DNA from: a virus
Lineage: Duplodnaviria; Caudoviricetes
Direction: 5' to 3' (one strand)
IMG/VR virus record: IMGVR_UViG_3300032266_000578
Span: 1-39,755 of that record
DNA length: 39,755 nt
The notes beneath the pieces were generated by a model. The model was not told where the DNA came from. It searched no databases and saw nothing but the letters and a program-made list of their open reading frames with translations. This document shows positions 4,839-17,270 of the stretch, piece by piece. Every line of letters starts with the position of its first letter. The stretch's first letter is position 1. Both the position numbers and the translations under genes were made by a program.

Positions 4839-5011
4839 TTATCCACAAGTTATCCACAATTACCCCTAAACATTCCTGAGATTATTTATCGAGGTAGGTA
4901 AGGGGGTAGTGACCATACCCCCCTTGCGCCGCTCCTAGGGGTGTTTAAACGCGTTTAAACGCTATAACGGTTTTCCTTAGTTGTGGATAACTACCCCTTT
5001 TCTGTGGATAA
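4839..5011. promoter_or_regulatory. Cluster of four perfect DnaA boxes
   Basis: TTATCCACA at 4839-4847 and 4850-4858; the inverse TGTGGATAA at 4982-4990 and 5003-5011. Confidence 0.8.
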
Positions 5012-5246: not shown

Positions 5247-5275
5247 CTTGCACCTTTTGTTTAAACCTGTAGAAT
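5247..5275 (+). promoter_or_regulatory. Early sigma70-type promoter
   Basis: CTTGCA-N17-TAGAAT upstream of the rightward early operon; the same architecture recurs at 15782-15754 on the minus strand. GTTTAAAC lies in the spacer. Confidence 0.6.
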
Positions 5276-5895: not shown

Positions 5896-6105
5896 ATGAC
5901 GCACCAAGAGCATTACGACACATTCAAACGCCGTCACCACGGCAAGCCCACTGTCTCACTGGACTTTGCACTGCACGACTGCTATGCCGCACTGAAATGC
6001 CATGCAGACAAGCCTGTCACTGACCCCTACGTTGTCAAACTGTGGGCTGAGATTGACGTTATCCGTGACTTGTTTTTGCTACGCACCAAAAAGGCTAAAG
6101 CATGA
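5896..6105 (+). CDS. Hypothetical early protein (69 aa)
   Basis: GGAG RBS; ATGA overlap with the next gene. Confidence 0.7.
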   Translation: MTHQEHYDTFKRRHHGKPTVSLDFALHDCYAALKCHADKPVTDPYVVKLWAEIDVIRDLFLLRTKKAKA

Positions 6106-6188
6106 ATGACCTTGTGAACGGCATTATTGACGTTGCCATTGGCTGCGTCTTCTTTTCTTTTCTTTTCTTTCTGTTGGGGGTTTTATGA
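6102..6188 (+). CDS. Small hydrophobic peptide (28 aa)
   Basis: MNDLVNGIIDVAIGCVFFSFLFFLLGVL; ATGA overlaps at both ends and it fills the gap exactly. Confidence 0.5.
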   Translation: MNDLVNGIIDVAIGCVFFSFLFFLLGVL

Positions 6189-6754
6189 ACACGACACGTG
6201 AGCAGTGGTTAGCTGCTTTGATCGAAGAACTGCGCGGCATTTTTGCGGTACACGGGCATCCGTTGCCTGAGCGTATCCGTCCTACCTGCGGGTTTCCGTC
6301 CTCCAAAGCACGTTCAAAGGACAAGCACATTGGCGAACATTGGTCACCCGCTGCGAGTGATGATGACACGCATGAGGTGTCTGTTTCCCCTGTAGTCAGT
6401 GACCCGTACGAGGTCGCAGGTATCCTGACGCACGAGTTGTGCCATGCCGCGACCAACGGTGACGGGCATCGGGGCAGGTTTCCTGATCTAGCCCGTAAGT
6501 TGTGGCTAGAGGGCATTCCGACTCATGCCTGTGCGGGGGATGCATTCCGGCTGCACTTTAAGGAAATTGTCGAGTCCTTGGGCGAGTATCCTCACGCCGC
6601 TCTGAACGTTGGCAGAGTGCTTACCCCGCAAAGTACCCGTATGTTGAAAGCGTCTTGCCACTGTGGTTACACCGTGCGCCTGACCAAGAAGTGGGCTGAT
6701 GCGGGTTTGCCCTGCTGCCCGTTGCATCACCTTGACCGTCTTACCCTTTCCTGA
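6185..6754 (+). CDS. SprT-like zinc metallopeptidase with C-terminal Zn ribbon
   Basis: HExxH (LTHELCHAA), downstream GH..F, and a C-terminal CHCGY...CCPLH. Confidence 0.75.
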   Translation: MNTTREQWLAALIEELRGIFAVHGHPLPERIRPTCGFPSSKARSKDKHIGEHWSPAASDDDTHEVSVSPVVSDPYEVAGILTHELCHAATNGDGHRGRFPDLARKLWLEGIPTHACAGDAFRLHFKEIVESLGEYPHAALNVGRVLTPQSTRMLKASCHCGYTVRLTKKWADAGLPCCPLHHLDRLTLS

Positions 6755-6791
6755 CCTGTTCTCTCCCCTAAAATTTTGAGGCTAATCAAAA

Positions 6792-8186
6792 ATGAACAAA
6801 GAACTCGCACTACTCCCGCTTGCCCGTTTAAACGCTGCTTTGGTTGCCCTTGGCATTGAGCGTGTCACTGACAAGGCTGCTGCCATCCCCGTCCTGTCAG
6901 ACGCCATTGACCGTGGGTTGATCACCCTTGCCGCGATCAAGTCATCTACTCCCCCTGCTCCCGCCCCTGCTCCAGAGGGCGAGATTCTATCCTCTGACTT
7001 CATTACCCTGCGATCTGAACTGCGATTAGGTCTCGACTTACTGAAAAGTAAAGTAGATGCTGACCGCGCCAACGCGAGTCGTGACCTTGCGATCCTGTCT
7101 GCCGAACTGCGGGATGCCGCACCTGTAGACGTCACCGCCTCTGTGCGTGATGCTGTTGCTGAAATCCTCGCGCCGTTCAAAGCCACTGCGACCCCTGCGA
7201 CACTGGCTGCTGTTGCGGCGTCTGCTCCTGCGGGGCGTGTCAGGGCTGACAAGCTGTTCGACACCACTTGCTACACGGCTGACGGTGAGTTAGTCAATTT
7301 CGGTAGCTTGGAGGTTTCTGTCTGGGGTGATGCTGATGCCCCTACCCGTCTGGATGACTATGTCTTTGACGCCCGTTATCTGCATGAGGCACTGACCGCC
7401 ATTGGTCAAAAGCTGCCCCTGAACTGTTGGTTAGCAGGGGAACGTGGCACGGGGAAAACAGAGTTTGTCACCCAATTAGCTGCGCGGCTTGGTCGCAAGT
7501 TGTACCGTATCAACTTCGACGAGGCTATCGAGCGCCTCGATTTTATCGGCGGCAACATTGTCGAAGAGGGGTCTGTAGTCTGGAAGGCAGGGGTACTGGC
7601 TCAGGCTATGCAACACGCAGGGGCGCTGATTCTGCTAGACGAGATCAGCTTTGCACGGGCGCAGTCTATTGCGGTCTTGCAGTCCTTGTGTGAACCCTCT
7701 GTGCATAGGGGCGTGATGATCAATGAAACGGGCATCAAAATACCCGTGCATCCCTCTGTCGCGTTCTTCGTTGCAGACAACACGAACGGGTACGGTGATG
7801 CGTCAGGCAATTTCACTGGTACACGCGATCAGAACAGCGCATTTATTGATCGCTTTTCGTACACCTTTGAGTTTAACTATCTGCCCCCTGCTGACGAAGC
7901 AAAATTGATTTCAGACCGCACTGGCTTGAACGCTGATGCGGCGCGTGTCATTGTGAAGTTTGCGGGTGTTGCCCGTGAAAAGAGCAAGGCAGGGATGCTC
8001 ACTCAGCCGCCCTCACTGCGTCAGTTGTTTGCATGGGCGAATGCGGTGCGTGACGGTATCCCTGTCAAAAACGCTTTCGAGTCTTCTGTCGTTCGTAAGT
8101 ACCCCGCTGACTGCTCTGCCGAGTTGCTCGCTGTTTTCACTGCAACCGTTGACGTTGTGAAATTCAAATCATTTTTAAGGAAATAA
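6792..8186 (+). CDS. MoxR-family AAA+ ATPase (CobS/CbbQ/NorQ-like)
   Basis: Walker A GERGTGKT, Walker B ILLDEI, sensor ADNTNG, AFIDRF arginine finger, PSLRQL; followed by vWA partner genes. Confidence 0.9.
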   Translation: MNKELALLPLARLNAALVALGIERVTDKAAAIPVLSDAIDRGLITLAAIKSSTPPAPAPAPEGEILSSDFITLRSELRLGLDLLKSKVDADRANASRDLAILSAELRDAAPVDVTASVRDAVAEILAPFKATATPATLAAVAASAPAGRVRADKLFDTTCYTADGELVNFGSLEVSVWGDADAPTRLDDYVFDARYLHEALTAIGQKLPLNCWLAGERGTGKTEFVTQLAARLGRKLYRINFDEAIERLDFIGGNIVEEGSVVWKAGVLAQAMQHAGALILLDEISFARAQSIAVLQSLCEPSVHRGVMINETGIKIPVHPSVAFFVADNTNGYGDASGNFTGTRDQNSAFIDRFSYTFEFNYLPPADEAKLISDRTGLNADAARVIVKFAGVAREKSKAGMLTQPPSLRQLFAWANAVRDGIPVKNAFESSVVRKYPADCSAELLAVFTATVDVVKFKSFLRK

Positions 8187-10658: not shown

Positions 10659-10679
10659 CCAGTTCCCTAGAGGCTAATC

Positions 10680-10859
10680 ATGAAAATTTACGTTGAAGTT
10701 AAAAGTAACTATGGCTCACAAGCAGTCTACCCTGTGTGCAATACGTCCAAGCTATTCTGCGAGTTAGCGCGGCAACGCACGTTAACTCCGGACGCCATCC
10801 GGACTATCAAGGCTCTTGGCTATTCAATCGAAGTTATTCAACCTACGGTGACGCTATGA
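10680..10859 (+). CDS. Small phage protein (59 aa)
   Basis: Hand translation MKIYVEVKSNYGSQAVYPVCNTSKLFCELARQRTLTPDAIRTIKALGYSIEVIQPTVTL; GAGG RBS; ATGA overlap with the next gene. Confidence 0.75.
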   Translation: MKIYVEVKSNYGSQAVYPVCNTSKLFCELARQRTLTPDAIRTIKALGYSIEVIQPTVTL

Positions 10860-12600: not shown

Positions 12601-14253
12601 TCAAAATGAATCCGGTGTTTCAAAGTATGTGCCTGTCGTTTTGTTATACGACAACGCCGTTTCACCCTGAGTGCCAATCCATCTGTACCTGCACTTCCAC
12701 ACTGCAATCTGTACCTCTGTTTTAAGTCTATGCACTGTGATACCGCAATCAGCTTTAGCCCACCAAGCCATCGACCCGCTGATCGACATACCGTCCGGTC
12801 TTGGTAAGTCCATGCCTGACCTTGTGATCTTAGACGGGTGCGCTACGAACCAGACATGGACTCCGTAGGCTTTGGCGAATGCCTGTACCCTTGTCAGCAT
12901 ATTGCTGATGAACTCTGTCTCTGAGGCTTTGTCTTTGTTATCAATGTAATTGTAGGGGTCGATCACAAGCCCTCTTATCCCCATCCTGATCACGGCGATC
13001 TTAGCCCGTGCAAGTATTGAATCAATGGTCGCGGGTTCTACGGACTCCGAATCTAAAAATATAAAATGATTCTCTACCCATTCAAACGACTCTTTTTTCT
13101 GAGTCTCAGTCATTCTGCTTGAACCCTCAAAGAACCGTTTTTCCTCCTTGATTTCCATCAAGCGGGAGATATGGACTTCGGGCTGATTCTCAAAGGAGCA
13201 GATGGCAAACTTCCAATCATGCTTTCGAGCCAAGTTGACCATCATCTGATCTACAAAGTTACTCTTGCCAGAACTCGGGTATCCGGTCACCACCGTTAAC
13301 TGTCCTTGTGCGATGGTGTAAATCTGATCCACGTTGGCGTATCCGGTGCTTGTACCTTTGCCGTTCCCCTTCGACCACAGATCGTTTAAACGTTCATGAT
13401 ACTTACTCGGGGCGGACAATCCGGCGACGGGGTAAGGCTGTGCGTCATTGATGATTCTTTGTACCTCTTCCGCGCCCTTGTCTAGAAAAGCTTCGTTCAG
13501 GTCTTTATGATCGAACTTGGCTACCCTGCAACGGTCTTTGCCAATCCGTCTAGCTAACTCCTCTGCTAGGGCTTGCCCTGCGGTGTCGGTGTCTGTGGCA
13601 ATGATGACATAAGGGGCAGCTTGCAGAATGTCGTTGGCTGACCACACAAAGGCAAACTTCTTGTCTTCTGAGGCTTCGATCTTGCCATCACGGACTTTCA
13701 TTGGTGCGCCTGATGGTACGCTGAGACCGTTTTTAATCCCGCATTCGATCAAGGTCAGTGCATCGATCTCGCCTTCAACAATAACGATTGGTAGGCTCGT
13801 ATCCACTGCATCGATACCGAAAAAATCTTGTGCGCCTCCTGCATCCTGAATAAAGTCTTTGCTCTCAATACTGCGATACTTGGCGGCAACAAGCTTGCCA
13901 TTTTTGTGATAAGGGAATGCAATTGCATCTGAAACCTTTTCTAATTTGTTGAACCACTTCTCTGCTGAAAACACTCCAACTGAGTCTGCTGTTTCCGGTG
14001 ATATGCCCCGTGTCTTTAAAAATTCATAATGCTTACTTTGCATTGCACCCACGGCGATAGGTTTGATCATTGGGATCACGTTACTCTCCGGTTTTTTGTC
14101 ATAAGGGATAAGACCGCTTGCATCACAGTGATGGCAGTGATAGACCCATCCCTTGTCACCACGGGTGAGTACGCAATCTTTTGAGTTGGATTTTTTACGC
14201 TCTGATGAGCAATCTGGACAGGCAATCCTGCCCTCTTCAAGCTGTGCTTGCAT
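12601..14253 (-). CDS. Primase-helicase (T7 gp4/Twinkle-like)
   Basis: Zn finger CPDC..CHHC, TOPRIM IVEGEIDAL and IATDTDTAG, SF4 helicase Walker A GYPSSGKS, LVIDPYN, FVAHP, KCR. Confidence 0.92.
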   Translation of the reverse strand: MQAQLEEGRIACPDCSSERKKSNSKDCVLTRGDKGWVYHCHHCDASGLIPYDKKPESNVIPMIKPIAVGAMQSKHYEFLKTRGISPETADSVGVFSAEKWFNKLEKVSDAIAFPYHKNGKLVAAKYRSIESKDFIQDAGGAQDFFGIDAVDTSLPIVIVEGEIDALTLIECGIKNGLSVPSGAPMKVRDGKIEASEDKKFAFVWSANDILQAAPYVIIATDTDTAGQALAEELARRIGKDRCRVAKFDHKDLNEAFLDKGAEEVQRIINDAQPYPVAGLSAPSKYHERLNDLWSKGNGKGTSTGYANVDQIYTIAQGQLTVVTGYPSSGKSNFVDQMMVNLARKHDWKFAICSFENQPEVHISRLMEIKEEKRFFEGSSRMTETQKKESFEWVENHFIFLDSESVEPATIDSILARAKIAVIRMGIRGLVIDPYNYIDNKDKASETEFISNMLTRVQAFAKAYGVHVWFVAHPSKITRSGMDLPRPDGMSISGSMAWWAKADCGITVHRLKTEVQIAVWKCRYRWIGTQGETALSYNKTTGTYFETPDSF

Positions 14254-14269
14254 TTAGCCTCCTGCGGGT

Positions 14270-15039: not shown

Positions 15040-15582
15040 TTATATAACTATTTCTACATTTTCTTTTGGCAAGATCAAGCCAAAATCGTTAATAAACAGA
15101 CTGTTAGTCATAAAACGATAAATATTTATTTTACGCTTGCTTGATTCTTTCCAAGTGTTCTTATGGCTGATGCCTTTACGATCACCGACTCGCACCCAAC
15201 CCATTTGTTTCCAAAAGAAGTTAGATGGCAAGTCATCCGCACAACCGCAAGCAAAATCATCTATTCCACGCAAGTTACCATGAGCAATCCCTGCACTTAA
15301 CAAAGCTTTACCACGCTCAATAAGCCTTGCGTCTGCTTGTATGCAGATTTGATTCACCTTTGAGGGATTGCCATAAGAAAACATCACAAACCCTACTAAA
15401 TCATTGTTTTCAGAGCATACAAAAAGCTGATCATTACAAGTCGGACTCCATCTTTTACCGGTTTTAATTCCGGTAATAGCCGATTCATACGCCATCTTAG
15501 GAATGAACCCCAAACACATACTTTCTTTATTGGCTAAAGAGACAATGTAAGGTATGTCTAAAAGGGTCGCTTTCCTAATCAT
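15040..15582 (-). CDS. GNAT-family acetyltransferase
   Basis: MIRKATLLDI N-terminus, LVGFV strand, QICIQADARLIERGKALL acetyl-CoA loop, SNFFWKQMGW motif B. Confidence 0.8.
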   Translation of the reverse strand: MIRKATLLDIPYIVSLANKESMCLGFIPKMAYESAITGIKTGKRWSPTCNDQLFVCSENNDLVGFVMFSYGNPSKVNQICIQADARLIERGKALLSAGIAHGNLRGIDDFACGCADDLPSNFFWKQMGWVRVGDRKGISHKNTWKESSKRKINIYRFMTNSLFINDFGLILPKENVEIVI

Positions 15583-15604
15583 TTCTGACCTAAGTTTTGA
15601 ACGT

Positions 15605-15747
15605 AAAAAAGCCCTAATAAGGAGGCTTTAGGCTTGGTTGCCACAAGGCTAGATGGAATGGCATCTAACCATGTACTGACGAAGCCACCTTATTAGGGCG
15701 TTCTGTTGTTCCATTCAACTACTGACGGGTTACCAAGCCATCAGATA
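15605..15747 (-). ncRNA. C4/CI-like antisense RNA and attenuator leader
   Basis: Perfect 12-bp stem GCCCTAATAAGG/CCTTATTAGGGC followed by U6. Inner hairpin loop CCATTC and segment ACCAAGCC are complementary to GAATGG and GGCTTGGT in the upstream leader. Confidence 0.6.
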
Positions 15748-15753
15748 AAGACT

Positions 15754-15782
15754 ATTCTATACATTATTTTAAAAATTGCAAG
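15754..15782 (-). promoter_or_regulatory. Leftward sigma70-type promoter
   Basis: CTTGCA-N17-TAGAAT on the minus strand, just upstream of the C4-like leader. Confidence 0.6.
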
Positions 15783-15796
15783 CGGTGCGTTATAAT
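15768..15796 (+). promoter_or_regulatory. Rightward promoter for the candidate sRNA
   Basis: Perfect TATAAT at 15791-15796 with TTTAAA 17 bp upstream; overlaps the leftward promoter. Confidence 0.5.
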
Positions 15797-15800
15797 TAAA

Positions 15801-15893
15801 GTGTTCCTCGTTCAGGGAATCACTTGATTAGCCTCCAGTGCAGACCTCCCTCGGTCGGTAAAGCCACCCTTAAAACGGTGGCTTTATTTTTTT
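15801..15893 (+). ncRNA. Candidate trans-acting anti-Shine-Dalgarno small RNA (about 90 nt)
   Basis: Lies between TATAAT and an intrinsic terminator. Loop TGATTAGCCTCC (CACT/AGTG stem) is complementary to several phage RBSs; a second C-rich hairpin is GACC-TCCCTC-GGTC. Confidence 0.55.
15859..15893 (+). terminator. Intrinsic terminator
   Basis: TAAAGCCACC-CTTAAAAC-GGTGGCTTTA followed by T7; the U tract is on the + strand although both flanking CDSs are on the - strand. Confidence 0.8.
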
Positions 15894-15921
15894 CTGTGCG
15901 CTTAACTCTGGCTTTTTTCTC

Positions 15922-16275
15922 TTAACTCCGGAGTGTTTCTACAACGATCTCACACCTTGGGTTCTCTTTGTCTAGGTGATGATATATATGTTTTTCCTTC
16001 ACCTGACGGTCATTTTTATAAGCTACGTCCTGTAGCAAGTCCAATATCAATGATTCGTCTAAGTCCGGTCTTCGACTGGCGTACCAGATATGTATCGTCA
16101 CGCACAAATCGCCTTCTAGCAGCTCGCCAGAGACAGCTTGCTGTTTAAACGACTCTGAGTAGTTTAGTGCCTTGGTTGATTTAATTAATCGGGATATGCC
16201 ACCGTAACGCACAATTTTTCTGCTGTTGCTTTTTGATGCCGGTTCACCAAATATTTTGAATGAAAGCGCTTGCAT
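15922..16275 (-). CDS. rusA: RusA-like Holliday junction resolvase
   Basis: GEPASKSN N-terminus, RPDLD..ILDLLQ..YKNDRQV acidic catalytic pattern, DKENPRCEI C-terminus. Confidence 0.8.
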   Translation of the reverse strand: MQALSFKIFGEPASKSNSRKIVRYGGISRLIKSTKALNYSESFKQQAVSGELLEGDLCVTIHIWYASRRPDLDESLILDLLQDVAYKNDRQVKEKHIYHHLDKENPRCEIVVETLRS

Positions 16276-16322
16276 TATGTTTTTCCTTGCGTTAGTATTA
16301 TGTTTCCTACTCGGAGGCTATT

Positions 16323-17270
16323 ATGAAAATCACCAATAAGTTTGGGTTGCCTGAACCCTTTGTCGCCCTTGCGTCAACAAGCTTTTACAGTAAAGGCAAA
16401 GCTGATTACTCTGTCACAGAGATCATATCACCACCACGCATACAGCGGCTGCGTCAGAGGCATTATGCTGAATTAACGGAAGATGTCAGCGACAGGACTT
16501 GGTCTTTAATGGGTACGTTAGCCCATCATTTCTTAGAGCAGCATAAAGTCAAAGACCATATTAATGAACAGCGTTTATTTGTTGAAGTTGATGGCGTTAC
16601 CCTGTCAGGTGCAATTGACTTGCAAAAAGAGACAGAGGGAACGGTTCATATTACCGACTACAAGTTCACCTCTGCTTGGGCGTTACGAGCAGACAAAATT
16701 GAGTGGATTCAGCAACAGAATATCTACGCATGGCTAGTCTATAAAATTACAGGCAAGAAAGTCCCCGTCTCGCGTCTTTGTGAGATAACGGGCAAACAGG
16801 TCTCAGGCTTACGCATCTGCGCGTTTATCCGTGACTGGAATCGCAGACAAGCTATGACTGATCCTACCTATCCACAGGCAAGCTCACAGATGGTAGACAT
16901 CCCTGTGTGGGATTTTGACAAGACCGAAGCTTACGTCAAAGAGCGCGTAGAACTTCATCGTGAGGCAAAGGTAGCTGCTGATTGGGAAATGGAGTTACCC
17001 CCCTGTACTGAGGATGACCGTTGGATTCGGGAGACAAAGTATGCCGTACTTAAAGAGGGTCGCAAGACCGCTGTTCGGGTTTTGGATACAGAATCAGAAG
17101 CGGCTGCGTTCATTATGGAAATGCCTGAGAAAGACAGAAAGATTGTCTCCATCAGCGTCCGCAAAGGCGAAGCAGTCCGTTGCACAGGAAACTTCTGCGG
17201 CGTTGCCAAGTGGTGTACACAATTTAAAAAGGAGCAGGAAGATGCAATCGTACAGCCTACCGTGGAATAA
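16323..17270 (+). CDS. PD-(D/E)XK exonuclease (Cas4/RecB-like)
   Basis: GTLAHHFLE, LSGAIDL, ITDYK, QQNIY, and a C-terminal RC..FC..WC cysteine cluster; upstream of ERF. Confidence 0.85.
   Translation: MKITNKFGLPEPFVALASTSFYSKGKADYSVTEIISPPRIQRLRQRHYAELTEDVSDRTWSLMGTLAHHFLEQHKVKDHINEQRLFVEVDGVTLSGAIDLQKETEGTVHITDYKFTSAWALRADKIEWIQQQNIYAWLVYKITGKKVPVSRLCEITGKQVSGLRICAFIRDWNRRQAMTDPTYPQASSQMVDIPVWDFDKTEAYVKERVELHREAKVAADWEMELPPCTEDDRWIRETKYAVLKEGRKTAVRVLDTESEAAAFIMEMPEKDRKIVSISVRKGEAVRCTGNFCGVAKWCTQFKKEQEDAIVQPTVE

Follow-up and report, generated by a model that had tools for sequence, protein, structure and literature searches.

Phage small RNAs whose targets are known mostly regulate a single neighbouring gene or the host, and the antisense RNAs that control plasmid copy number, CopA among them, are encoded in cis and fully complementary to one target. 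As described in the cited passages, the C4 RNA of phages P1 and P7 is a three-stem product of RNase P, and base pairing of its loops with phage mRNA leaves the ribosome-binding site (RBS) partly occluded; it acts on its own icd-ant operon, beside the C1 protein, and its specificity resides in a few bases (PMC5320573, PMC8198154). SviR, encoded by the Vibrio cholerae satellite PLE, is portrayed in the quoted parts of its report as a conserved mobile-element RNA that pairs in trans with the 5' untranslated regions of several of its own element's operons, lowers a translational fusion and also targets the helper phage; a shared, covarying RBS signature is not reported in those parts (10.1101/2022.04.08.487710). 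Excerpted accounts describe Sar of P22 and OOP and aQ of lambda as pairing RNAs that reduce the expression of genes of their own phage, each being antisense to one regulatory gene (PMC12197685), and RNAII of pMV158 as a small RNA that inhibits translation of a replication protein (PMC4485353).

The phage RNA predicted here resembles C4 in being short, in probably acting through loop-mediated RBS occlusion and in drawing its specificity from few bases. In contrast to C4, it is predicted to have its own promoter and terminator, does not match the Rfam C4 family and has unlinked targets in three transcription units; it forms a stand-alone unit, and no antirepressor was found among the 38 window proteins scanned. 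Like SviR, it would pair in trans with several operons of its own element, and like Sar, OOP, aQ and RNAII it would lower gene expression by pairing, but a seed of 9–13 nt addresses several distant enzyme genes. Compared with the plasmid copy-control RNAs, it is trans-acting, short-seeded and multi-target: it is not encoded opposite a target, the putative targets lie 0.5–9 kb away and the longest match is 12 nt rather than a long, full complementarity. Its predicted features are those of a trans-encoded small RNA: a dedicated promoter and terminator, the lack of a conserved ORF, and a short seed complementary to unlinked mRNAs that shows compensatory change. Our search of the open-access literature turned up no description of this RNA, nor of any phage small RNA that covaries with several RBSs of its own phage. 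The seed strings are absent from the six supplement files of PMC10690425 that were searched, although files 1, 2 and 4 may list this RNA as a candidate, and 10.64898/2026.09.22.753630 contains no passage on Shine-Dalgarno (SD) sequences or small RNAs.

The window, by which we mean the whole stretch of DNA analysed, is a complete virus record of 39,755 bases. Domain scans identified terminase subunits, a CbbQ/CobS-like AAA+ ATPase with a VWA partner, a primase-helicase, RusA, Erf, SSB, large virion proteins and a PD-(D/E)XK exonuclease, the last of which had wrongly been labelled a Cas4-like nuclease. We found no cultured relatives above 34% primase identity; the species-genome collection held four primase relatives, all on MAG contigs, two of them labelled betaproteobacterial. 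An acetyltransferase-like gene at 15040–15582 (minus strand) is an insertion relative to the close relative L001. The features discussed below are collected in Table 1.

Table 1. Features of the predicted RNA unit, its putative target sites and neighbouring elements (positions are those of the window).
Feature	Position	Strand	Basis or remark
Predicted sigma70-type promoter of the RNA	15768..15796	+	weak -35 TTTAAA, -10 TATAAT
-10 box TATAAT	15791-15796	+	
Predicted small RNA, about 91 nt	15803..15893	+	start inferred from -10 box; fold z -3.9
Stem-loop P1 with seed	15821..15840	+	folding
Seed, antisense to extended SD signature	15824..15836	+	complementarity and covariation
Hairpin P2, GACC/GGTC stem, variable loop	15843..15856	+	folding
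Predicted intrinsic terminator	15857..15893	+	terminator prediction (call spans 15857-15888)
RBS of primase-helicase gene (12601-14253)	14254..14262	-	9 nt match; class match 61/62
RBS of CbbQ/CobS-like AAA+ ATPase gene (6792-8186)	6778..6789	+	12 nt; class match 36/36
Looser: RBS of PD-(D/E)XK exonuclease gene (16323-17270)	16313..16320	+	8 nt; class match 34/53
Lineage-specific candidate: RBS of 59-aa ORF	10670..10680	+	11 nt
Weak candidate: RBS of 28-aa peptide	6092..6098	+	7 nt, -13.1 kcal/mol
Divergent structured leader or RNA with terminator (earlier C4-like RNA)	15603..15747	-	z -5.2
Stand-alone LexA DNA-binding-domain protein, 76 aa	3588-3818	-	domain scan; 5/5 genomes

The sequence-only reading had proposed a stand-alone plus-strand unit here, with a TATAAT box, a length of about 90 nt and a strong terminator, and such a unit is present. 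The predicted RNA folds into a 5' hairpin, the seed stem-loop, the GACC/GGTC hairpin and the terminator, which is predicted for the plus strand alone. TTGAC(A/T/G) is the best-scoring -35 sequence in 22 of 33 representative loci, and two-sided changes are seen in 7 of 9 terminator pairs; on a plain alignment, RNAalifold recovered the terminator alone and not the two upstream stems. No relevant Rfam family was detected in the window (E up to 1) or in five relatives (gathering score). That a hairpin presents the seed was borne out in part: seed flanks beat shuffled flanks in folding in 25 of 30 loci, a count uncorrected for kinship, whereas in the window the seed hairpin is isoenergetic with the open form and the effect by itself is not significant. 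A second C-rich loop had also been noted, and a P2 hairpin does follow the seed stem-loop, but relatives do not conserve its C-rich loop and often have AGTA there, so we rejected it as a second seed. We likewise rejected a U-turn motif, because the U that is invariant in one alignment (A2) changes with the target in L174 and L175, and a minus-strand leader peptide, which is not conserved among the 33 representative loci. Two runs guessed to be RNA (word shares 0.05–0.06) yielded only short contigs, covering 15595–15736 and a 37-nt piece of the terminator, and are evidence neither way. On the rusA strand of this region (15803–15922) the terminator has no U-tract, the antisense side never exceeding 4 T of 8 in any of the 64 loci; rusA transcripts could therefore read through and give a full-length antisense to the predicted RNA.

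All five complementary sites reported earlier lie where they had been placed, with matches of 12, 11, 9, 8 and 7 nt, although the claimed extension of pairing into CTAATCA holds at the AAA+ and 10680 sites and is not reached at the other three. They are the top five of 57 curated window starts (three of which are mis-set), the next best being 6 nt. A CCUCC stretch of any kind matches many RBSs, and the antisense site leads into a start codon in 16 of 33 loci, so that the seed might be fortuitous, a generic anti-SD sequence, or the remnant of an RBS with a minus-strand mini-ORF. However, random seeds that keep the GGAGG core gave p of about 0.005 for four matches of at least 8 nt and about 0.0003 for the top-four sum, and the mini-ORFs range from 2 to 39 aa and are absent from 17 of 33 loci. 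Together with the covariation and co-absence of seed and RBS described below, these results already largely refute that explanation, to which we give almost no credence. The sites at 10680 and 6102 are not kept on those genes in the close relative L002 and are lineage-specific; in L002 the 10680 motif instead precedes a different inserted ORF.

Conservation was assessed in loci collected via RusA (14), via primase alignment (the best 80 of 418) and from genomes (4). From the RusA set we dropped ten loci that were duplicate contigs or lacked a primase, and we further excluded loci without rusA or a full primase, leaving 76 rows including the window, with 71 different primases. The RNA unit lies downstream of rusA, on the opposite strand, in 64 of the 76 loci. 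The 12 RNA-negative loci were assigned by eye, and a model built from 33 copies (R1) found no full-length match in them; because this model missed two true divergent copies, L174 and L175, absence here means unseen by eye or model within the fetched span. The same model gave one full-length match in each of five near-complete genomes, and the RNA was found in at least 4 of 115 further loci of marine-type and sister-clade origin. RNA and primase-RBS core were both present in 62 loci and both missing in 12, in which the primase RBS lacks the motif; the two remaining loci (L069 and L095) have the RNA with a coreless primase RBS. A phylogeny-aware test of this presence association gave p of 0.25–0.5. 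We disregarded matches of 12–16 nt at the outermost end of the span examined, where the primase start overlaps itself.

Covariation between loop and target RBSs had been named beforehand as the decisive observation, and it is present. Of 64 primase RBSs, 62 have the core, and 61 of these 62 fall into the seed class of their own locus. Agreement is 36 of 36 for the AAA+ RBS (the core being missing, by script, in 3 of 39) and, more loosely, 34 of 53 for the exonuclease RBS, where 19 of 53 are mismatched and the core is missing in 10 of 63. Collapsing the loci at 80% primase identity left 17/18, 13/13 and 10/13 agreements for primase, AAA+ and exonuclease, with permutation p at most 0.0005, although the permutation ignores the tree. 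The main variable base agrees in 31/31, 20/20 and 16/24 cases, respectively, against 10.9, 8.1 and 8.2 expected, and flanking positions also covary above chance, uncorrected, at primase position +11 and AAA+ position -1. Control RBSs rarely carry the class motif (erf 1/25, ssb 0/28, vwa 0/19, rusA 0/32), and the GC ranges of the seed classes overlap.

The changes can also be followed on an IQ-TREE tree of 36 rows, from which L069, L095 and the RNA-less loci were left out. Eleven seed changes over five positions, seven of them at one position, were all accompanied by a matching change in the primase RBS, as shown by identical joint and RBS counts at every position; five primase RBS changes occurred without a seed change. 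Independent-pair sign tests never went the wrong way, with 3, 2 and 2 pairs on starred branches, but do not reach 0.05 because independent pairs are too few. Rare seed variants are followed as well, by the primase and exonuclease sites in L077 and by all three sites in the L022 clade. As a held-out check, four of four new RNA-bearing loci matched the primase RBS over 9–14 nt, and L174 and L175 carry a previously unseen seed variant that the primase RBS matches. There is thus strong comparative support for a conserved anti-RBS RNA gene whose predicted product pairs with at least two, and probably three, unlinked early-gene start sites. What the covariation shows, on comparative grounds, is support for this pairing, not its sign or purpose.

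In all five near-complete relatives (5/5) the genome's own version of the motif stands before the AAA+ and primase genes and, by crude ORF calls and among the matches listed, in most of them also before several small early ORFs. Portal, capsid and other virion genes are without the motif among the matches listed, save one tail-fibre gene in G002. The predicted targets are early, replication and recombination genes. The RBS of the ORF at 6185–6754 carries the motif of the RNA's class in 5 of 20 relatives.

A shared reader of another kind would likewise yield covariation. The motif could be the site of a phage protein, either a DNA operator or the target of an RNA-binding repressor, the copy at the RNA locus being a site or decoy on the rusA strand and all copies following the protein's specificity; the phage does encode several DNA-binding proteins, the terminator is weak on its antisense side and rusA transcripts may cross the site. 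However, promoter and U-tract polarity put the transcript on the complementary strand, the targets are in sense at the SD, the single antisense copy falls within the predicted loop, and the covariation spans at least seven positions, flanks included. The sole class exception among 62 primase sites (L040) is, moreover, compatible with G-U pairing. We consider a protein site quite improbable.

The reading we favour, and think probable, is that a trans-acting antisense RNA of about 90 nt masks the SD regions of early genes in three transcription units, limiting their dose or timing. In such a model, host sigma70 would transcribe the RNA from early infection. Pairing would start at the loop, and the seed would anneal to the extended SD signature of the primase-helicase, AAA+ ATPase and exonuclease genes and block ribosome loading on early mRNAs. 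Blocked loading is what the complementary, co-changing seed and SD signature suggest, and RBS occlusion is described, in the cited passage, as the standard outcome of such pairing (PMC5861419). The predicted duplex, at -18 to -19 kcal/mol, is stronger than that of a generic anti-SD probe (-6 to -10 kcal/mol), which we take as a proxy for ribosome pairing energy; because it also covers the GGAGG core, repression of the targets is likely. The proposal that one small RNA silences three operons thus stands for pairing with RBSs in three transcription units, from which we infer the repression itself. With a host-type promoter, output of the RNA would begin early and scale with the number of phage genomes. 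The simplest role would then be to cap early and replication proteins: through delayed negative feedback the RNA would restrain how much, or for how long, replication, recombination and early proteins are made while the genome multiplies, comparable to the plasmid antisense RNAs that limit Rep translation.

The sign of regulation is not readable from covariation, and the RNA could pair yet activate or stabilise mRNAs, or act mainly on host mRNAs with the same SD variant. Precedents appear in the cited extracts, in which PreS acts on host dnaN (PMC12197685) and SviR alters transcript processing of its own element (10.1101/2022.04.08.487710). Still, the duplex covers the SD core and reaches the start codon, and covariation with phage genes indicates phage targets, which makes activation or host targeting very improbable.

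A repressing RNA might instead serve mainly immunity, maintaining a lysogenic or carrier state and blocking superinfection by related phages as a substitute for CI; seed classes would then correspond to immunity groups. The RNA sits between divergent replication and recombination units, the CI/LexA peptidase domain (PF00717, Peptidase_S24) is found in 0/5 near-complete genomes, and an integrase is present in 4/10 records, or 4/7 at 90% completeness or more. For C4 of P1 and P7, a few bases set immunity specificity, as the cited passage puts it (PMC5320573). Against this, the RNA is kept in three near-complete genomes without an integrase, no integrated copy or host junction was evident in 22 integrase loci of at least 4 kb among 51 fetched, and only the four MAG-borne primase relatives came from the species-genome collection. 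A 7-nt core is common to most seed classes, which would therefore carry little immunity specificity. The LexA DNA-binding domain (PF01726) is present in 5/5 near-complete genomes, and the proposed C4-like partner is not conserved. Immunity as the main function is accordingly unlikely. No tRNA genes were found in the five genomes or in 42 integrase loci, and the LexA-domain gene, which carries no other domain, lies directly before the terminase large subunit gene.

An RNA-only switch, with the C4-like RNA encoded back to back as partner and no need of CI, had been envisaged for this locus. The evidence does not support it: there is the LexA-type protein just mentioned, and the partner is neither Rfam C4 nor conserved. 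The back-to-back RNA matches no Rfam family, C4 or other; outside the window only the closest relative carries it, most relatives having another element or none at that place. On this comparison the putative RNA is a neighbour, not a conserved partner. Its 18-bp closing stem could compete with its own terminator, and it lies upstream of the primase unit; L002, L003 and L091 have unrelated structures in its place.

Several RNA-less loci among L057, L053 and L062–L070 carry another anti-SD stretch before a terminator, just downstream of rusA and on the rusA strand. Its matches in L057 are 11 nt at the RBS of the 6185-type gene and 9 nt each at those of the AAA+ gene and a small ORF, and the stretch in L068 fits a shared ACTGGAG signature; it is possibly a second, swappable anti-RBS RNA derived from the rusA 3' end. 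A complement of 13–14 nt to the locus's own primase RBS, on the same strand and at most 3.5 kb upstream, occurs in the distant relatives L279–L282 and L285 (43–44% primase identity). A bolder proposal, which we regard as rather doubtful, is that the early genes bear a private SD address read by one master-repressor RNA, whose 9–13 nt seed, not CI, would set lysogeny or superinfection immunity, with seed variants, and the second swappable anti-RBS RNA in lineages that no longer have the first, defining the immunity groups.

Eleven times on the tree, one RNA has changed jointly with at least two unlinked RBSs of the phage, and the natural cognate and non-cognate seed-RBS pairs make the interaction testable with reporters without culturing the phage. 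If repression holds, the locus would represent an early-gene regulon without a protein regulator, present across a widespread group of uncultured phages. It might then explain how replication is limited in phages without a CI-type peptidase repressor, and would supply a compact orthogonal set of RNA-RBS parts.

Two further repeats were observed in the window. Four perfect TTATCCACA boxes, which we take to be the DnaA-box consensus, lie at 4839–5011 as two inverted pairs against 0.41 expected; they are not kept in G003–G005. The palindrome GTTTAAAC occurs 32 times against 1.08 expected, in coding and non-coding DNA alike, with one copy falling within a candidate early promoter's spacer near 5259, and each of the five relatives G001–G005 carries 29–47 copies.
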